The notes beneath the pieces were generated by a model. That model searched no databases, was not told the origin of the DNA, and saw nothing but the letters and a program-made list of their open reading frames with translations. The position numbers and the translations under genes are program-made. A stretch of DNA of 46,706 nucleotides from a bacterium (GTDB lineage Bacteria > Patescibacteriota > Minisyncoccia > Phycocordibacterales > UBA9973): positions 1-46,706 of the forward strand of contig JAIXRY010000009.1 of the NCBI GenBank assembly GCA_027484965.1, in the 5' to 3' direction. Shown here piece after piece: positions 19,933-37,232 of the stretch (position 1 is the stretch's first letter; the number at the start of each line of letters is the position of its first letter).

Positions 19933-21090
19933 CTATTCACCAGAACTTTCCATTACAACTTCTTTCATGCGATTGCGTACATTTTTCAATATTTCATCGC
20001 GAAGTTTTGGATTATCTTTCATAAATGTACGAGTTGCGTCATATCCACGCCCAAGCTTCACTTCTTTTTGTGTTTCAAAAGAATCTGCTTTGTCTTCAGT
20101 ATCTTCTGCCTTTTCAGCTTTAGATTTCTTTCCAGATTCTTTTGGAATTATTTTGATATCTTCGTCTGGGCGAGTGTATGTATAACTCACACCTCCAGCC
20201 TTTGATATGATTCCAAGTTTTTCACCTAGTGCTATAAGTTCACCTTCGAGTGATATTCCTTCACCATAAATAATATCGAACTCTGTTTGTTTGAATGGGG
20301 CAGCGACCTTATTTTTTACAACTTTCACACGAGTGCGACTTCCTACCACTTCTTCACCCTTTTTTATTTGTGCAATACGGCGAATATCGAGACGAATAGA
20401 AGTGTAGAATTTTAGAGCTTTTCCTCCTGGGGTTGTTTCTGGATTACCAAACATAACACCAATTTGCATACGGATTTGGTTGATGAAAATAACAACAGTG
20501 TTTGAACGAGCAACAATTGCTGTTAGTTTACGAAGAGCTTGAGACATAAGACGAGCTTGTTTTCCTACATGTTGAGCACCCATATCTCCTTCGATTTCAT
20601 CTTTTGGAGTAAGAGCTGCAACAGAATCAACAACTACAACGTCTATTTTTCCAGAACGAACAAGACTCTCTGTTATTTCAAGTCCTTGCTCTCCTGTATC
20701 TGGTTGTGAAATGAGAAGGTCGTTAATTTTAACACCAAGATTTTTTGCATATTCAGGATCCATTGCATGTTCAGCATCTATATATGCACATACACCGCCT
20801 TTCTTTTGAGCTTCTGCGACTATATGTAGAGCTAGAGTACTTTTACCTGAAGATTCAGGTCCATATATTTCAATCATTCTTCCGCGAGGCATTCCTCCTA
20901 CACCAAGCGCAATATCAAGACCAATAGATCCTGTTGGAATAACATCGACATTTACTTTTGGAGTTTGACCAAGTTTCATAATTGCTCCTTCACCAAATTT
21001 TGTTTGGATTGAACGAATTGTATCGTCAATACCGGCAGTTCCTACTGCTTCTTTCATTACTTTTACTTTTGTAGATTTTTTGAGGGCCAT
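19933..21090 (-). CDS. recA: Recombinase A
   Basis: [48 protein letters not shown]. Confidence 0.99.
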
Positions 21091-21118: not shown

Positions 21119-21562
21119 TTATATTTTACTTGCACTCGGCGGACCATCGAGTGAGTCATTCTGAATAATTTTTGTTTCTATGTTTGCCCCAATTGGTGGA
21201 GAGATTGTTTCTTTTTCCACGAGAAGTTGATAAGTTTTTTTGTTTGCTTTGCCAAACCTATCATATGCTTTTACTGTGAGTACTGTGTATCCTGAGGGGA
21301 GTCCTAGAGATGCTTGCCAGTTTCCTTTTTGATCGATAGGTATAGGATTGTCATTTATATATAGTTCTTTTGTGTTTTTTGTTGTTCCAGAAAGATTGAA
21401 CGCTCCACCATTAATAGTAGTCCCGTTCTCTAAATCATCAGATGAAAAACGAGCACCTTCTATAAGAGGGAAGAATCTAGACACAGTAAAGGTAATAATA
21501 ATACTAAAGAGTACTATTAAACCTTTTTTCTCTGTACTTGATTTTTTCCACCACGATATCAT
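21119..21562 (-). CDS. Membrane-anchored protein with one Ig-like domain
   Basis: N-terminal TM; LSGT...LYIND...GYTVLTVKAYDRFG Ig-fold pattern. Confidence 0.7.
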   Translation of the reverse strand: MISWWKKSSTEKKGLIVLFSIIITFTVSRFFPLIEGARFSSDDLENGTTINGGAFNLSGTTKNTKELYINDNPIPIDQKGNWQASLGLPSGYTVLTVKAYDRFGKANKKTYQLLVEKETISPPIGANIETKIIQNDSLDGPPSASKI

Positions 21563-21564
21563 AA

Positions 21565-23805
21565 TTATATTTCAGGTTCATTTACTGGTTCATTTTCACG
21601 ACCACCAAGCACATCACGAGGTTTTGCACCATTTCCTGGTCCTACAATACCGCGTTCTTCAAGAATATCTATTAGACGCGCCGCGCGAGCATAGCCAATA
21701 GAAAGTTTTCTTTGTAAGAATGATGTTGAAGCTTTTCCACTCTCAATAACTATTTGCTTTGCTGTTTCGTAGAGATCGTCATCATCATTATCTCCTTCGA
21801 TACTACTTTCAAATATAGATTTATCACTAGAAATGTTTGTTCCTGAAATATCAATAAGATTTGGGATTTCGTCCTTGTATGCTTCACTTAGATATTTTAC
21901 AACTTTCTTTACTTCTTCTTCTGTAATATATGCAGATTGTAGACGGTTTGGCTGACCTTCACCTCCAGAATAGAGCATGTCTCCAGCTCCTAGAAGTTTT
22001 TCAGCTCCGACAGTATCAAGAATTGTGCGAGAGTCTATACCTGTAGGAACACGAAGAGCAATACGAGTAGGAACGTTTGCTTTAATAAGACCTGTAATAA
22101 CGTTTACTTCAGGGCGTTGTGTTGAAAGAATAAGGTGGATACCGACAGCTCGAGACATTTGAGCAAGGCGAACAATAGCCGCTTCAAGCTCTCTTGGATA
22201 TGCCTGCATAATATCTGCGAGCTCATCGATGATAATCACAATATAAGGCATTTTGTCTGGACCTGTACCTTCAATAGCGTCTTTTGGTGCTTTGTATGTT
22301 TTTACAATGTTGTCGTGATAAGACTCGATATCACGAACACTTTCTGACTGAAGGATATCGTATCTTCTTTCCATCTCTTTTGCTGCCCATTTAAGCGCAA
22401 GAATAGCTTTCTTGGCATCTATAATTACAGGTGTGAGTAGGTGAGGAATTTTATTATAAAGAGTGAGCTCAACACGCTTAGGGTCCACCATGATAAGCTT
22501 CAATGCTTCTGGTCCATTTCTATACAGAAGTGACGCCACGATAGAGTGGATAGTTACAGATTTACCAGATCCAGTTGTACCTGCAATCAATGCATGAGGG
22601 GCTTTCGCCATGTTTACATAGTGAGGTTTACCGGCAACGTCACGACCAAGAGCGACAGTGAGAGGTTTTGGTGCACTTTGGAATCTTTCATCAGAAAGAA
22701 GAGCTCCAAGTCCAACCATGGCTTTTGTCTTGTTTGGAATTTCTATACCCACGAGAGACTTTCCTGGGATAGGTGCTTCGATACGAACAGGGTGAGCGGC
22801 AAGTGCAAGAGCGAGGTCGTTTTGAAGACCTACGATACGAGAAAGTTTTACTCCAACAGCAGGCTTCAGAGCATAGCGAGTGAATGTTGGTCCAATAGTA
22901 ATTTCATCCATCTCGACTTCAATACCGAAGTTGAGTAGTGTTCGTTTTATGATATTTGCATTTGCTTTGATGTCTCCAACATTTGCCTTACCTTTGTCTG
23001 CTTCAAGAAGATTGAGTGGTGGAGGAACATAAGTTGCGTGTTTTGTGAATGCATTTTTTTGAATTTTAAAATCACCAACTTCATCACTAAAATCTGAAAT
23101 TTTTGTCTCACGTGTCTTCGCTTCGCTTTGAGAATTTTCGACAGCTTTATTTTCTTTTGCGTCGACTGCCATCCCTTCGATAACTTCTGGAACTTTGTTT
23201 GGATCAAAAGTCTGCCCTGCGACAAATTCTTCGAATTCTTCACCCTCGTCTTTTTTGTGTAGTTTGTTTTTTATCCATTCAATGAGAGGGGTGATGTGTG
23301 GACGTCTATCGAAGAGTACAAAGAGTGACCCTACAAGTATTGCTGAAAGGAAGATAACAGAAACATAAACATCAAAAAGTTTTATGAATGGCCATGATAC
23401 AAACGATCCTATATATCCAGCAGATTGCTTACTTGCAATATCAAGAAGTCCAAGTGATGTTAAGAAGAAAAGAGAAGCGCTCGCTGTATGAATTTTTGCA
23501 AGGTGAGGTCTCTCGGGTTTCAAAAAAGAGATACCTAAAATTGTCCCCAAAATAGGCAGAAGAAAGTATCCATAACCAAAAAGTGAGTATAATCCTTTGT
23601 ATGTATAAGAACCCACAACACCTGCTTTTTTGAGGGCTGCAAGTGTGAAGAAGAGCACTAAAACAAAAGTGATCAATGCGTATATTCCGTGTCTTGTTTC
23701 ATCCTTTAAAAAACTTTCTTTTGGTTCAATTTGGTTGTTTTTTGAACCTCTTACCTTTGATGATTCAGTGTCATCTTTTTTTGTTTGTGTGTTCTTTTTA
23801 GCCAT
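21565..23805 (-). CDS. ftsK: DNA translocase FtsK/SpoIIIE
   Basis: N-terminal TMs, RIEAPIPGK, GTTGSGKS, IIDELAD, C-terminal gamma domain LQRKLSIGYARAARLID. Confidence 0.97.
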   Translation of the reverse strand: MAKKNTQTKKDDTESSKVRGSKNNQIEPKESFLKDETRHGIYALITFVLVLFFTLAALKKAGVVGSYTYKGLYSLFGYGYFLLPILGTILGISFLKPERPHLAKIHTASASLFFLTSLGLLDIASKQSAGYIGSFVSWPFIKLFDVYVSVIFLSAILVGSLFVLFDRRPHITPLIEWIKNKLHKKDEGEEFEEFVAGQTFDPNKVPEVIEGMAVDAKENKAVENSQSEAKTRETKISDFSDEVGDFKIQKNAFTKHATYVPPPLNLLEADKGKANVGDIKANANIIKRTLLNFGIEVEMDEITIGPTFTRYALKPAVGVKLSRIVGLQNDLALALAAHPVRIEAPIPGKSLVGIEIPNKTKAMVGLGALLSDERFQSAPKPLTVALGRDVAGKPHYVNMAKAPHALIAGTTGSGKSVTIHSIVASLLYRNGPEALKLIMVDPKRVELTLYNKIPHLLTPVIIDAKKAILALKWAAKEMERRYDILQSESVRDIESYHDNIVKTYKAPKDAIEGTGPDKMPYIVIIIDELADIMQAYPRELEAAIVRLAQMSRAVGIHLILSTQRPEVNVITGLIKANVPTRIALRVPTGIDSRTILDTVGAEKLLGAGDMLYSGGEGQPNRLQSAYITEEEVKKVVKYLSEAYKDEIPNLIDISGTNISSDKSIFESSIEGDNDDDDLYETAKQIVIESGKASTSFLQRKLSIGYARAARLIDILEERGIVGPGNGAKPRDVLGGRENEPVNEPEI

Positions 23806-23830
23806 AGAAATATAGACTAATTATATCATG

Positions 23831-24835
23831 TAAGACATATGAAATCATAGAAAAAACCTTATAAAACAAGAATAAAAAGTCCGCAAGTTGTGCAATGTCT
23901 TTTTGAGCGTATAATAAAGACATCAAATTTTTATCAACTGTCCAATACTCATAAAAGACAAATTAACAGACAATATGGAACACTTAAAAGACATACAAAA
24001 AAAGACACAAAGTATAGTCACTGCGCTGTACATGGTTTCTGATTTTATGAATGATAATGAGCCTGTTAAACTAGAACTCAGAAGTATTGGTGTGTCCTTG
24101 ATTAAAGATGTACTCTCTCTCCAAATGTCTGATAGAGGTGAGCACTACAAGAGAGTCTCAATTGTTCGTTACAAGATTGCAGAACTTCAAACTCTGATAA
24201 GTCTAGGACGAACTCTCGGAATGGTGTCCATGATGAATTCAAAACTTTTAGATGACGAGCTTGTGAGTCTTTCTCATGCATTAGAACATGTAAGACCTAT
24301 TGAAAATATAAAATCAAAATCATTCATTCTTCCAGAAAATCTTTTTAAAGAAGAATTTAAAAAAGAAACTGTTCTAGCTGATCGAGATACGACATCGATT
24401 CATGCAGAAAAGAGTGTCAGAGATTATAGTGTCGCCAGTCCTGTTAATATTGGAAATAGTTCATTTCAAAAATTCTCTTTTGAAAAAAATAGTACAGGAA
24501 GTGACATGTCTCACACCAACACTCTTCCTAAAAGGACAGATGAAAATGTAATCATAAAGACAGAAATAAAAGACAATAGAAAAAAAGAAATAATGGACAC
24601 AATTAAAAGACAAGGAGGAGTGTCAGGTGTAACTATAAAAGACATTACAAAATTGTTTACAGATGTAAGTGAGAAAACAATACAAAGAGAACTAACAGAA
24701 ATGCTTCAAAAAGGACAAATTAAAAAGACAGGTGAAAAACGCTGGAGTAGATATTACCCTCTATAAAATTCTTTAAGAATTTATTAAAAGACATTAATTT
24801 TAAAATTAGGGATTTATTAAAATTACTATAGGACA
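23831..24835. repeat. Dense array of short (A/T)A(A/G)GACA / TGTC motifs across promoter, CDS and 3' flank
   Basis: By hand count about 28 GACA/TGTC in about 1.07 kb (23769-24835), 11 of them AAAGACA/TGTCTTT. They occur in all three codon phases and in non-coding DNA. Confidence 0.75.
23975..24766 (+). CDS. Four-helix-bundle (Avd/23S-IVP-like) domain, linker and C-terminal DeoR-like winged HTH protein
   Basis: N-terminal KKTQSIVTALYMVSDFMNDNEP..ELRSIGVSL...IAELQTLISLGRTLGMVS; C-terminal TIKDITKLFTDVSEKTIQRELTEMLQKGQIKKTGEKRWSRY. Confidence 0.8.
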   Translation: MEHLKDIQKKTQSIVTALYMVSDFMNDNEPVKLELRSIGVSLIKDVLSLQMSDRGEHYKRVSIVRYKIAELQTLISLGRTLGMVSMMNSKLLDDELVSLSHALEHVRPIENIKSKSFILPENLFKEEFKKETVLADRDTTSIHAEKSVRDYSVASPVNIGNSSFQKFSFEKNSTGSDMSHTNTLPKRTDENVIIKTEIKDNRKKEIMDTIKRQGGVSGVTIKDITKLFTDVSEKTIQRELTEMLQKGQIKKTGEKRWSRYYPL

Positions 24836-24845
24836 GATTTAATCA

Positions 24846-24886
24846 AAAAAAGGAGCGGGACCCAACAGGGTCCCGCTCCATTTTTT
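24846..24886. terminator. Strong intrinsic terminator
   Basis: ggagcgggaccc-aaca-gggtcccgctcc flanked by A and T tracts. Confidence 0.85.
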
Positions 24887-25102
24887 ACCAATCACGACTC
24901 TTACATACTACACCTTACAACTACCAAAAAGTGACCATCCAGAAACCTTTGAATTAATGTCTCTAGTATTTTTATAAAAGTAGAGAAAAATTATTTTTCA
25001 ACGTTTTCCACATTGATTTTTATTTCTTATTCATCTTCATTTAGGTATACTTATCTTTGTATATATTACGTGCATTTTTTTATGTATTGTGGTAATATAC
25101 AA

Positions 25103-25500
25103 GTATCCCTCCAAGGAGTGAGCTATCGACACAACTTGGTTCCCGAGCGGTTTTACGTAAGGGTAAAAGGGGATATATCGAAGCGGAACGATCATTGACA
25201 AATGAATAGGAAATACAAAGTGATGCCGACTGCGTATTTTCGCTCGTTCGTTTATCAATATCTTCCGTGTATCGGCCATGTCGACACGGCAGATTCAATC
25301 TTTCCAAACCCACATTGTGAATTTGAATTAATCGCATAATTCTCTAATTAAAATAATTTTGATTTTTGACTTATAACTTTTGATTTGAATCTACGGTGTG
25401 GGTTTGGAGAACCCTAACCGCATACATCTTAGTTTGTCGAAACTAACTATCAAGTATGCAGTATTACAAAATTGGTAACTCATTTAAAAGTGTTATCAAA
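25103..25500 (+). ncRNA. Long structured 5' leader (or ncRNA) upstream of the S-layer-like gene
   Basis: TGG-TAATAT -10 at 25090-25098. Helices gtatccct/ggggatat, ccgtgt/acacgg, tccaaacccaca(25303)/tgtgggtttgga(25397) and gcatac/gtatgc. Confidence 0.55.
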
Positions 25501-25527
25501 TAATACAAAAGTTTTTTAAATTTAATT

Positions 25528-28500
25528 ATGAATAAATTCTCATCAACAACTTTGAAAGTTGTTGCTGCTGGAGTATTCGCTTTTGCTATGGCGTTCGCGT
25601 CAACAGCAAGTGCTTACACTTTCACAACAACACTTAGACAAGGTTCAAGAGGAGTAGCTGTTCAAGAACTACAAAAGTTTTTGAATGCTTACTCTTCAGA
25701 AACAGTAGTTGCTACTTCTGGCGCAGGTTCAGCAGGTAAAGAAACTACATCTTTCGGTCCAGCTACTAGAAGAGCAGTTATCGCTTTCCAAAAGAAAAAC
25801 GGTCTTGCTCAAGTAGGACAAGTTGGTCCAGCTACTCGTGCTCTTCTTAACGGAACAAGTACAGGTGGTGGTTCAAATCCAGTAACAAATACTAATGGTG
25901 TTTCAAGAGCTACAACAAGTCCAGCTTCAGGAACTCTTATTGCTACACAAGCTAATGCAAAACTTCTTGATATGACTTTTGCTGGTAACTACACAGTTAC
26001 TAATGTAAAACTTATGAAAGGAGGTATCTCAACAAACTCAGCACTTTCAAACATTTACTTGTTTGATGGCGCAACACGTTTGACAGATGCTGCAACAGTT
26101 AACTCAATGGGAGAAATCTCATTCAACGCTCCATCAGGTCTATTTATGGTAAATGGTTCAAAAACTATTTCTGTAATGGCTGATGTTGCTTCAGGTACAT
26201 CAGGACAAACAGTTTCTGTTAGCTTTGCTTCTGCTATGGCAGGAACAACAGCTGTTACAGGATCTGCAGAAGGTAGTACATTTACTATAGCTGCAAATCC
26301 TTCTAACATGTCAACAGTTTCATTTACATCTTCAACTGTTACTCCTTCAGGAGCAACATTGAACACAGGTTCAAATGTAACTCTATGGCAATCATCAGCA
26401 ACTATTGGAAACAATGATGTTTTCTTTGATCGCGTTGCTTTCCGTCAAGTTGGTTCAGCTCCAGCTTCAGCATTTGCAAACTTCAAACTCTATGTAAATG
26501 GAACACAAGTTGCATCAGCTGCTGGTCTTGACTCAAACGGTTATGTAACATTCGTTCCTACATCTCCTGTTCGTCTTCTTTCAGGGACTCGTATAATGCG
26601 TGTTGACGCAGACGTTGTTTCAGGAGCATCACGTACAGTACAGCTTTCTCTTAGAACAGCTGCAGATGCAGGATTCCGTGATTCACAACTTGGTGTTAAT
26701 GTAACTGCTGCAGGTCTTCCTGAAGTAGCAACAACAGCAAGTACAATCGCAGGATCAACAGGTGGTACTATTACTATCGAAAAAGATGTAACATCACCTT
26801 CACAAAACGTTGCTCTTTCAAGTAACGATGCAGTGCTAGGTATCTTCAAAGCAACTGTATACGGTGAACCTGTAAAAGTTGAAACTCTTACAGTTGGAGG
26901 AACATACTCTGTTACTTCTACTATCCGTAACGGACGTCTTTTGATTAACGGTACACAATATGGTTCTACAGCAACTCTAGTTCCAGCAGGTACATCATTT
27001 ACTACAAACTACACAATCTACCCAGGTACTCCTGTTATGATTGAAGTTCGTGGAGATATATTTGACAATGACGGAACACAAAGTTTTGTTGGTGGAAGTA
27101 CAATACTTACAACAATCGTTGCAGGTTCAGCTAATGGTCAAAAAATGGATTCACTTGGATCAGTAGATGTTCCAGCTGCAAACGTAAGTTCAAATACATT
27201 GACTGTTGGTACAACAGCAATGACTTTGTCTAGAAATGCAACATACACAAACCAAACAGTAGTTCTTCCACAAACAGCTTACAAAGTTGGTTCATGGAAT
27301 CTAGTTGGTTCTTCAATCGAAGATATTCTTTTGACAACATTGTCATTTGATATTGATTCAGTAACAAACACTACATTTAGTGCAGCTGACATGACAAATG
27401 TTTACGCTGTTATTAAGTCAGGTGGCGCAACAGTTCTTACAACTTCACCAGTTGGAACAGCTACTGCAGCTGATAACAATGTTTCTGTTAACTACACTCT
27501 TGCTAAAAACGCAAGTATCACAGTAGAGTTCTTTGCAACTCTTGGTTCAACAGTAACAGCGGCTGACTCAGTTAAAACAGACCTTACTGTAACAGGACAA
27601 TCACTAACAAGTGGAAGTTCAATTACAGCAACATCTGCTGATACTGATGGACAAACATTGACAGCAGGTGCAGGATCATTGACTATTACAGCTGATGCTT
27701 CAACACCTACAAGTCCAATCGTTTACTCTGATAACCAAACAGTTCGTACAGCAGCATTCAAATTTGCTTCTGTAAACACTGGTTACAAAGTTACAGACAT
27801 TACTTTGACAATCCCTGCAGCTGGTGCAACTATTGCTAATACAGTAAATATTTCATCAACAACAGGATCATTCTCAGCTTCAATGACTGCAGGTGCAACA
27901 ATGACATTCTCTGGTCTTAACTGGAATATTCCAGCTAACACAAATGCAGTATTGAATGTAGACCTAGTTCTTGGATCTGTTGGATTCTCAGCAGGTACAT
28001 CAGGAGCAAGTCTTGCAACTGCTTTGACAGACGTAACAGCAACTTCTGCAGCTACAGGTGTATCTGCAGCAGCGACAGAATCAAATCCAGCAGGAACAAC
28101 ATTCTACGCTTACGCAGCAACTCCAACAATCACTCAAACAGAACTTTCTAGTTCAGAAAGTTTGCTTGGAACAGGTACAAAGAATGTTGCTAAATTCGCT
28201 GTTTCTTCAAATGGAGGTGAAATCTCTTGGAAGAAATTGATCTTCACTGTAACTCGTGCAATCTCAGGTACTGATACTCTTGCAACACCAACACTTTGGG
28301 ATGCAGATACTAATACTCAAATTGCAGGAACACCAGCATTCACAGGATCTGTGGAAGCTGATGGCGGAACAGCAGGTACAATTACTTTTGTTGCTACTAA
28401 CGAACAACAAATTAATGGTACAAAGAACTACATATTGAAAGTAGTTGTTGCAGGTACAATTACAGATGGGGATAACCTAAACGTAAGTATCGCACAACCT

Positions 28501-28665
28501 TCTTCATACGTAGCTCCTGCAGCTTACGCTACAGTAGCTGGCACAACATCATCATTCACATGGTCTGATATGTCAGCTTCAAGTCACTCAGAGTCAACTA
28601 CTGACTGGAGTAACGGTTTTGGAATCAAGAATCTTCCAACAAATACTTGGACTCTTTCAAAATAG
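25528..28665 (+). CDS. Large secreted S-layer-like protein with N-terminal peptidoglycan-binding domain
   Basis: Signal peptide (...TASA|Y); PG-binding motif LRQGSRGVAVQELQKFL...FGPATRRAVIAFQ...GQVGPATRALLN. Thr/Ser/Ala/Gly-rich and Cys-free, with codon usage like highly expressed genes. Confidence 0.85.
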   Translation: MNKFSSTTLKVVAAGVFAFAMAFASTASAYTFTTTLRQGSRGVAVQELQKFLNAYSSETVVATSGAGSAGKETTSFGPATRRAVIAFQKKNGLAQVGQVGPATRALLNGTSTGGGSNPVTNTNGVSRATTSPASGTLIATQANAKLLDMTFAGNYTVTNVKLMKGGISTNSALSNIYLFDGATRLTDAATVNSMGEISFNAPSGLFMVNGSKTISVMADVASGTSGQTVSVSFASAMAGTTAVTGSAEGSTFTIAANPSNMSTVSFTSSTVTPSGATLNTGSNVTLWQSSATIGNNDVFFDRVAFRQVGSAPASAFANFKLYVNGTQVASAAGLDSNGYVTFVPTSPVRLLSGTRIMRVDADVVSGASRTVQLSLRTAADAGFRDSQLGVNVTAAGLPEVATTASTIAGSTGGTITIEKDVTSPSQNVALSSNDAVLGIFKATVYGEPVKVETLTVGGTYSVTSTIRNGRLLINGTQYGSTATLVPAGTSFTTNYTIYPGTPVMIEVRGDIFDNDGTQSFVGGSTILTTIVAGSANGQKMDSLGSVDVPAANVSSNTLTVGTTAMTLSRNATYTNQTVVLPQTAYKVGSWNLVGSSIEDILLTTLSFDIDSVTNTTFSAADMTNVYAVIKSGGATVLTTSPVGTATAADNNVSVNYTLAKNASITVEFFATLGSTVTAADSVKTDLTVTGQSLTSGSSITATSADTDGQTLTAGAGSLTITADASTPTSPIVYSDNQTVRTAAFKFASVNTGYKVTDITLTIPAAGATIANTVNISSTTGSFSASMTAGATMTFSGLNWNIPANTNAVLNVDLVLGSVGFSAGTSGASLATALTDVTATSAATGVSAAATESNPAGTTFYAYAATPTITQTELSSSESLLGTGTKNVAKFAVSSNGGEISWKKLIFTVTRAISGTDTLATPTLWDADTNTQIAGTPAFTGSVEADGGTAGTITFVATNEQQINGTKNYILKVVVAGTITDGDNLNVSIAQPSSYVAPAAYATVAGTTSSFTWSDMSASSHSESTTDWSNGFGIKNLPTNTWTLSK

Positions 28666-33546: not shown

Positions 33547-33667
33547 AAAAATTACCGCCCGGACGCCCAATTTTGGGGTCTTTTATGTCCGAGGCGGGAG
33601 TGGTTTGCATACAGAGGAAGCGGTTCCCGAGTATGAGCCACGACAGTAGTTTTTAAATTTCCTGATA

Positions 33668-37080
<3,413 letters not shown>

Positions 37081-37121
37081 ATTAGGAAATTTGAAAACTA
37101 CGTTTATATTACGAATGCTCT

Positions 37122-37232
<111 letters not shown>

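Follow-up and report, generated by a model that had tools for sequence, protein, structure and literature searches.

A TAAARGACA array running through the gene of a winged-helix protein beside ftsK: a candidate autoregulating DNA-binding factor in Patescibacteria

A dense array of a short motif is found in a 46,706-nucleotide stretch of patescibacterial DNA (contig C2, JAIXRY010000009.1, of assembly G000, which comprises 796,455 bp in 17 contigs), called the window here. The array surrounds and runs through the gene for a 263-aa protein, named X here (open reading frame (ORF) 23975-24766 on the + strand), which stands beside a divergent ftsK (Table 1). A preliminary description of this DNA had listed 28 starts of GACA or its complement TGTC between 23769 and 24835, and all of them are present, with none missing and none extra (18 GACA and 10 TGTC on the + strand). 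When 1067-bp segments are slid across all contigs of G000, this one is the densest in the genome: it holds 28 cores, the next-best non-overlapping segment 18 and the average one 5.3, and the fraction of segments reaching 28 is 5e-6. An unexceptional density had been named at the outset as grounds for refutation, and the density here is the genome-wide maximum. AARGACA is found 14 times, versus 6 in the next-best segment, and 6 of the 35 copies of TAAAAGACA in G000 lie here. That most cores extend to AAAGACA or AAGGACA is half true, AARGACA accounting for 14/28 (ARGACA 16/28 and RGACA 22/28), and the guanine-plus-cytosine (GC) content of the contig is 35.2% rather than the roughly 32% assumed at first. 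Within the ORF, GACA occupies all three codon phases (five in frame 0, two in frame 1 and five in frame 2), and the sites continue beyond it into the non-coding flanks in both orientations, as had been described. Pairs of cores 12-14 bp apart are also present. The 37-bp spacing exists here, where a 21-nt repeat stands at 24555 and 24592, but it is not general, being found in 2/73 adjacent same-strand pairs of the 20 homologous loci introduced below; the commonest spacings among these pairs are 24 (7 pairs), 23 (6) and 13, 14, 18 and 32 (4 each). A tandem array or a mobile element was rejected as a description of 23769-24835, where the repeats are short and imperfect and the longest three-copy family measures 21 nt. 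Elsewhere in G000 there are small AARGACA clusters, three copies in fmt (C1:97124-97178) and three in tuf (C10:22835-22893), and these are coding by-products.

The comparison set consists of 20 homologous loci from the same order, whose proteins are 28-59% identical; X homologues are found in 34/41 related genomes. In 19/20 loci, GACA/TGTC cores are 2-4 times as dense around the gene as in the flanks. Alignment of 359 cores from the 20 loci gives the consensus T-A-A-A-R-G-A-C-A, and 328 GACA cores from the flanks show no sequence context. The exact TAAARGACA occurs 87 times in and around the gene, from 250 bp before it to 100 bp past its end (21.2 kb in total), versus 0 times in 49.1 kb of flanks. 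Most of these sites are in the sense orientation (77/87), including 22 of the 23 upstream ones. At 6 further loci of the order, AAAGACA, AAGGACA and AAAAGAC are among the most frequent 7-mers when words are counted de novo with no prior. The X gene locus also forms a cluster of exact sites in 5/5 relatives for which these sites were listed genome-wide, and motif arrays accompany full-length X in 26/26 loci. At 23 loci in other orders, encoding proteins that share only the C-terminal winged helix-turn-helix (wHTH) domain, neither a TAAARGACA array nor an ftsK neighbour is found. Seven of the 41 relatives are without an X match, and five of them (all except G007 and G022) were inspected. In three, a contig begins with ftsK (G010:C4, G012:C14 and G029:C2; L090-L092), X in G010 being cut off in the linker region, and in G021 and G026 no ftsK is found either. 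The apparent absences inspected are contig breaks or missing ftsK loci, and X appears universal in the order. Assemblies seem to break at the X locus (G010, G012 and G029).

The motif is under selection as nucleic acid. Synonymous codons were permuted within each of the 20 coding sequences (CDSs), keeping the protein and the codon usage of the gene, and 300 such shuffles gave 11.1 +/- 2.8 exact sites in the X CDSs, versus 52 observed; 0/300 shuffles reach this number. The choice among synonymous codons therefore favours the motif, and the proposal that the constraint lies on DNA rather than on protein is borne out at the nucleic-acid level. In an alignment of 39 proteins, the variable middle of X abounds in IKD, KGQ/KGH and KRT, the translations of the motif in frames 0, 1 and 2, respectively; the boxes in frame 2 are shortened because the full 9-mer there would contain a TAA stop. 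The linker peptide sequence thus looks like a consequence of the box array.

Boxes resembling binding sites overlap the predicted core promoter of X itself in 14/20 loci. A TGTCY box stands 3-14 nt ahead of a TATAAT-like hexamer in the upstream region of 11/20 loci, and an RGACA box stands 0-3 nt past such a hexamer in 8/20; either arrangement is found at a -10-like hexamer in 14/20 loci and both in 5/20, versus 0/74 control segments, while shuffling gives an expectation of 0.34 and 0.14 loci for the two arrangements. Boxes in antisense orientation within promoter spacers, which are untranscribed, argue for recognition of duplex DNA. As a tool for calling a regulon, the loose box/-10 pattern was abandoned, its 34 matches genome-wide being too unspecific.

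The motif is not unique to the X locus. A second cluster of exact motifs is found at the gene of the CCA-adding enzyme (cca) in 4/5 relatives listed genome-wide, and the tRNA-cca-xth region is a conserved hotspot; the cca locus of G000 carries three exact sites (C7:23777-23818). There are 93 exact sites in 30 cca loci (125 kb), with sense sites at +370..+525 of cca in 24/30, and others are found upstream, on the side of yraN and the tRNA genes, and downstream, on the side of the convergent xth. In the cca CDS, 46 sites are counted on the sense strand alone, versus 8.0 +/- 2.5 in synonymous shuffles, and again 0/300 shuffles reach the observed number. One position of the cca DNA reads SKGQ in some genomes and IKDS in others. 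The gap between cca and xth (L022 3352-3653; L024 2498-2874) measures 300-380 bp and is relatively GC-rich, with no long ORF and no Rfam match; RNase P RNA was considered for this gap and received no support in RNA-family searches.

Both hotspots are also rich in TTATCCACA, which we take to be the perfect DnaA box. Such boxes number 27 in the cca loci (125 kb) and 12 in the X loci (70 kb), versus 3 in 320 kb of other sequence from the relatives, an enrichment of about 20-fold at both places, and 16/27 of the perfect boxes at cca loci lie within 40 nt of an exact motif site. Upstream of tRNA-cca in 9 loci there is a composite, TGTCYTTTA-N18-TTATCCACA, in which the spacing from box to DnaA box is fixed at 27 nt. 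Among 301 genomes drawn from across the phylum, a single one was found to contain it, and full-length X is encoded there too. DnaA-box-like words surround the composite, TATACACA just before it and AAGGATAA after it, and with these words it resembles a cluster of DnaA boxes that has a single X box at a constant distance. Downstream of cca, a DnaA box lies between inverted X sites, most clearly in L082, L084 and L088, and 5 genomes have a perfect box there. At the X locus, a perfect DnaA box stands, in the same orientation each time, 150-250 bp past the X stop in 10/20 loci (L003-L020, +711..+1006 from the X start). By eye, this downstream box precedes a TATAAT-like hexamer by about 31-33 nt.

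The X locus had been suspected of being a parS- or iteron-like centromere or origin, and this is not upheld. ParB_N proteins are encoded elsewhere in the genome (they are present in 38/41 relatives, including G000), and the X locus is without a GC-skew inflection, cumulative skew rising through C2 with no interior extreme. An oriC at X was likewise rejected, as there is no inflection and only one DnaA box, with 1 mismatch, downstream (25004-25012). No partition NTPase (ParA, ParM or TubZ) is encoded beside X, whose neighbours are ftsK in 20/20 loci and a PG_binding_1 protein in 18/20. These results make the centromere reading less likely but leave some probability for a chromosome-organising role. 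The only interior minimum of cumulative GC skew on any G000 contig lies at C7:23-27 kb, which is the yraN/tRNA/cca/xth locus (C7:22610-26118; L058, L060), and dnaA is at C7:60 kb, 35 kb from the minimum. A terminus-like skew maximum of G000 is found on C17 at about 46 kb. In G008 the order is X (416 kb), dnaA (492 kb) and cca (538 kb), with cca inside a broad skew trough at 520-552 kb. Contig C2 of G040 carries cca (96 kb), dnaA (122 kb) and X (190 kb), and contig C2 of G015 carries X (22 kb), dnaA (103 kb) and cca (138 kb); in both, the skew minimum coincides with dnaA. An identity of the cca hotspot with oriC in general was therefore rejected, as it holds in G000 and is compatible with G008 but fails in G040 and G015. 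The cca hotspot is origin-proximal, and the claim is limited to this proximity.

AlphaFold2 models X with a mean predicted local distance difference test (pLDDT) score of 74, giving a confident bundle (residues 1-110), a low-confidence stretch (129-190) and a winged helix (190-263). The C-terminal elements (H190-213, H221-227, H233-245, E249-252 and E259-262) make up a three-helix bundle with a beta wing, and this domain superposes on solved wHTH domains with Z 9.4-10.6 and a root-mean-square deviation (rmsd) of 1.3-2.1. That the gene encodes a wHTH protein, as had been noticed, agrees with this fold and with HTH_DeoR (PF08220) matches in the family, which are found for 33/39 members at E<=1 (best 4e-07); the window protein reaches 18.7 bits, under the 21-bit cut-off, and its Pfam winged-helix matches are sub-threshold only. 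In 39 sequences S232-R238, K251, G253, R256, W257 and Y260 are invariant, so the recognition helix and the wing are the most conserved part of X. An invariant recognition helix agrees with a motif that is unchanged across the order. In VIA superposition the N-terminal domain matches the 23S rRNA intervening-sequence (IVS, 'S23p') proteins 2rld (Z 16.4) and 2gsc (Z 15.7) and the DGR accessory protein Avd (8ub7_B, Z 15.4; 4dwl, Z 15.3), on which it superposes with an rmsd of 1.9-2.5 A over 103-108 residues, versus Z <=13.0 for unrelated helical bundles; Foldseek gives E 4.7e-4 to 2gsc. Entries of solved relatives of the Avd/23S-IVS type contain five chains, and by analogy with these relatives the bundle of X may be an oligomerisation hub. 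Prediction of a complex of four copies of residues 1-112 scored 0.20, versus a mark of 0.42, and is no evidence either way. The family comprises at least 1878 proteins in a large collection, the named ones all being hypothetical except for one automatic ArsR-family label, and their organism labels are Parcubacteria or Nomurabacteria (Minisyncoccota in the Atlas). No solved structure matches X by sequence. A LexA/SOS repressor identity was rejected, as X has no Peptidase_S24 match and separate S24 proteins are found in the genome, e.g., at C17:53599-53934.

Table 1. Features of the X locus in the window, and loci bearing the composite upstream of cca
Feature	Position	Strand	Basis and remarks
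recA	19933..21090	-	Pfam RecA, E 7.3e-137; last gene of the leftward ftsK-orf-recA run
147-aa ORF between ftsK and recA	21119..21562	-	ORF list; only a sub-threshold Glucodextran_B match
ftsK	21565..23805	-	FtsK_SpoIIIE (E 1.9e-58), FtsK_alpha, FtsK_gamma, FtsK_4TM; divergent from X
Array of 28 GACA/TGTC cores	23769..24835	both	Pattern counts
Putative ftsK promoter element, TGTCT-N7-TATAAT	23837-23820	-	Pattern match; hexamer ends 14 nt before the ftsK ATG; presumed function
Putative X promoter, TTGTGC-N2-TGTCT-N9-TATAAT-AAAGACA	23888..23922	+	Sequence and homologous arrangement; -35-like TTGTGC 23888-23893, TGTCT 23896-23900, TATAAT 23910-23915, AAAGACA 23916-23922
Exact TAAARGACA boxes	starts 23952, 23985, 24567, 24604, 24636, 24785	all +	Pattern match
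Gene X, 263 aa	23975..24766	+	ORF, AlphaFold2, fold matches, Pfam
Avd/23S-IVS-like four-helix bundle, aa 1-110	23975-24304	+	AlphaFold2, pLDDT >90
Linker predicted disordered, roughly aa 111-190	24305-24544	+	pLDDT <50 for aa 129-190
DeoR-type winged helix, aa 191-263	24545-24763	+	AlphaFold2, Pfam, fold matches
Intrinsic terminator hairpin, 12 pairs + T run	24852..24879	+	Terminator scan; ends the X transcript
DnaA-box-like TTTTCCACA, 1 mismatch to TTATCCACA	25004..25012	+	Pattern match
Conserved ~185-nt RNA-like element	25121..25310	+	nhmmer, folding; outside the array, between the X terminator and the PG_binding_1 gene
Large secreted protein, N-terminal PG_binding_1	25528..28665	+	Pfam; conserved downstream neighbour
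Composite-bearing loci upstream of cca	L064, L067, L070, L071, L074, L076, L077, L080, L086		

The divergent ftsK, recognized as such from the start and supported by its FtsK_SpoIIIE match, lies upstream of X in all 20 loci and in 6/6 further ones (26/26), and the order ftsK-orf-recA recurs in G008. On the other side, the last two motif cores (24790 and 24832) precede the terminator, and a homologous PG_binding_1 ORF follows X in 18/20 loci after a gap of 500-1000 bp. The RNA-like element lies in this gap. RNA-library contigs from four metatranscriptome runs of four studies cover only 25121-25310 within 23300-25600 and are uninformative on X expression; two of them, 184 and 187 nt long, have nearly equal ends. 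The element is placed equivalently by nhmmer in L002, L003, L016, L008 and L011, contains the invariant blocks GATCATTGA.AA and CGTATCGGCCATGTCGACACGGCAGAT, shows compensatory changes in 6/19 predicted pairs and has a folding z-score of -2.6. It matches no Rfam family and may represent either a novel small RNA or the leader of the gene that follows. A gathering-level Rfam scan of the window reports only 23S, 5S and one tRNA, and a lenient scan of 23600-25600 reports sub-threshold noise. The 23S rRNA match (33662-37087) is 3426 nt long versus a 2925-position model and probably contains at least one insertion; 5S is at 37124-37231, and no 16S rRNA is found in the window by the Rfam scan.

We lean towards reading X as a DNA-binding factor that is multivalent, controls its own gene and has a small regulon; it would bind TAAARGACA and serve as a switch shared with the divergent ftsK-recA operon. 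Its DeoR-type winged helix would recognize the 9-bp box on double-stranded DNA, and its Avd/23S-IVS-like four-helix bundle would be a hub, joined to the DNA-binding domain by a disordered tether of about 80 residues. Multivalent X could then fill irregularly spaced boxes around its own -10 hexamer and through the 5' untranslated region (UTR), the CDS and the 3' UTR, those in the CDS lying mainly in the part that encodes the linker, whose peptide would be shaped by the boxes. The filled array would shut the X gene off by cooperative negative autoregulation, which may combine promoter occlusion with intragenic roadblocks, and it would probably determine how strongly the ftsK-orf-recA operon, 70 bp away, is expressed as well. 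At yraN/tRNA-cca/xth, near the origin and beside perfect DnaA boxes, these boxes would mark a second target region. Among the roles that had been suggested at the outset, the best fit is the autoregulatory switch, cooperative and shared with the ftsK promoter, as boxes are located at the -10 hexamer of X in 14/20 loci versus 0/74 controls and, in the window, TGTCT/TATAAT is likewise placed on the ftsK side.

Several findings weigh against this reading of X as an autoregulating DNA-binding factor. The link between X and the motif consists of co-localisation and co-distribution. A simple sigma-70 scan does not call the proposed X promoter, whose -35 agrees with TTGACA in 3/6 positions. Both the sense bias of the exact sites (77/87, and 22/23 upstream) and the confinement of those in the window to the stretch from the putative -10 to the terminator would be predicted equally by a motif acting at the RNA level. 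Some sites at the second hotspot lie between the convergent cca and xth, not at promoters, an ill fit to a simple repressor. Between G000 and G001, of the same genus, 11/28 GACA/TGTC cores are kept versus 32% of other 4-mers, and for AARGACA 6/12 versus 17.5%, so that box positions turn over; the number and density of boxes, rather than their positions, are mainly maintained. As to the bundle, PF05635 matches 2/39 family members (best E 0.0044) and leaves the window protein unmatched, which is a weak membership. Avd is described as a pentameric, positively charged barrel (PMC6182149), and the N-terminal domain of X, with 14 K+R versus 15 D+E, is not basic.

The boxes might instead be bound by another regulator, e.g., one acting with DnaA, X being its most heavily controlled target; no result links X physically to the motif, and boxes and DnaA boxes are found together in three kinds of setting. 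This is unlikely, however, since the densest array is the X gene in every genome examined, arrays accompany full-length X (26/26 loci) and are missing at the 23 distant wHTH-only loci, the composite box-N18-DnaA-box is met in 1/301 genomes of the phylum, an X carrier, and the invariant recognition helix parallels the invariant motif. The motif could also be read as UAAARGACA on the X and cca mRNAs and be bound there by X or another protein for control of translation or stability. The sense bias (77/87 at X loci, with the strand split mostly sense within cca as well), the location of six of the six exact window sites inside the predicted transcript, the resemblance of the X wHTH to the RNA-binding C-terminal domain of SelB (Z 9.5) and the N-terminal fold, which is that of Avd, a protein that works in an RNA-protein complex, are in keeping with such a motif. 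It is nevertheless distinctly unlikely in view of the antisense boxes in untranscribed promoter spacers (11/20 loci), the inverted pairs around DnaA boxes and the fixed 27-nt spacing to a DNA element. The sense bias in the CDS has a simpler cause, as an antisense box would encode Cys/Leu/Phe-rich peptides or stops, while the sense box encodes K-D, K-G-Q and K-R-T. Chance, or the composition of lysine-rich peptides in an AT-rich genome, accounts for the AARGACA clusters in fmt and tuf but is hardly credible for the array, being refuted by the synonymous shuffles, the 0 sites in 49 kb of flanks, the sites in non-coding DNA and the genome-wide maximum.

Alternatively, X might serve chromosome organisation in a centromere-like manner, sitting on its own gene and on the cca locus as anchors that flank the origin, for segregation, folding of the origin domain or datA-like titration, with autoregulation as a by-product. 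Dense arrays that span the whole gene instead of a single operator would suit an anchor, as would the hub-plus-tether architecture, the location of the two hotspots to either side of dnaA (in G008, G040 and G015), the skew minimum at the cca locus in G000, the trough around cca in G008 and the enrichment of perfect DnaA boxes beside motif boxes. With ParB_N in 38/41 relatives, however, a substitute centromere protein is unneeded, the X locus is without a skew inflection, the skew minimum of G040 and G015 is at dnaA, 26-35 kb from cca, no gene for a partner ATPase or GTPase stands beside X, whose neighbours are ftsK and a wall-binding protein, and conserved gene order alone could account for the origin-proximal positions; we regard this role as quite unlikely. 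More speculatively, X might be a multivalent, possibly pentameric cell-cycle factor that uses its own gene as a high-capacity titration platform, the two arrays (that at tRNA-cca-xth with its DnaA-box-coupled boxes) bracketing oriC and coupling replication state (gene dosage and DnaA occupancy) to ftsK/recA expression in these reduced genomes. We hold this doubtful, and equally so the further idea, within the cell-cycle proposal, that the disordered linker exists largely because its coding DNA is the binding array of X. If true, the proposal would describe a datA-like or centromere-like nucleoprotein device of an undescribed kind.

Parcubacteria (Patescibacteria/CPR) are almost entirely uncultivated, and in the literature searched no described regulator or operator is found for the group. 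A defined 9-bp motif, an order-wide candidate binder and a small candidate regulon, which touches cell division, recombination, tRNA maturation and the origin region, are offered here for testing. The X gene is also an unusually clean case of a CDS overwritten in all three frames by a DNA-level signal, residues of the linker following from the motif, and this bears on how disordered regions and 'conserved' short peptides of such proteins are interpreted. An Avd/IVS-type bundle fused to a winged helix, a combination not met in the searches made, suggests a hub-and-tether reading of irregular site arrays. As judged from title and abstract start, none of the literature matches listed for TAAAGGACA concerns bacterial regulation. 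Nothing in print on the X family or the motif is found in the literature searched. Under Patescibacteria regulators and binding motifs, PMC8565304 and PMC7739468 name Patescibacteria in the reference list only, and no paper on a Parcubacteria winged helix, ftsK or DnaA box is relevant by title or abstract.

Several known systems share parts of this arrangement. In TubR-tubC, a type III plasmid partition system, a wHTH protein binds iterons upstream of its own operon. X resembles it as a winged-helix protein of small size whose gene carries an array of short repeats, most of them direct, and in its putative autoregulation, and among the weak fold matches found for the C-terminal domain TubR (3m8e) ranks 47th (E 0.17). 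Unlike TubR, X is chromosomal, has no TubZ-like partner and has boxes through its CDS, and TubR lacks the Avd-like bundle and the long linker. The parS site is a 16-bp palindrome inside or near spo0J/parB and origin-proximal, so that ParB-parS and X have in common a site within the gene of the (candidate) binder and origin-proximal hotspots. The fold of X is unrelated, however, no ParA gene is adjacent, the 9-bp box is asymmetric and present in tens of copies, and ParB_N proteins exist separately. Omega (pSM19035) and ParR-parC are ribbon-helix-helix plasmid proteins on purely upstream heptad or iteron arrays; many short repeats of variable number and orientation at promoters are common to these systems and X, as would be cooperative filling that leads to autoregulation and higher-order complexes, whereas X is a chromosomal wHTH protein whose arrays are also intragenic. 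With Avd/23S-IVS ('S23p', PF05635), X shares the fold of residues 1-110, but its bundle is not basic, sequence similarity is marginal, and there is neither a reverse transcriptase nor an rRNA context. DnaA-box clusters, datA- and DARS-type loci and DnaA as a transcription factor are paralleled by the enrichment of perfect TTATCCACA boxes at both hotspots, just upstream of promoter-like hexamers; they differ in that a site here usually has a single perfect (predicted) box, while the densely repeated motif is another one. WhiA, which binds GACAC and controls cell-division genes in Actinobacteria and Firmicutes, combines LAGLIDADG-derived domains with an HTH. It is like X in its GACA-containing box and its link to division genes, and unlike X in the LAGLIDADG-derived domains, which Pfam and fold searches do not find in X.

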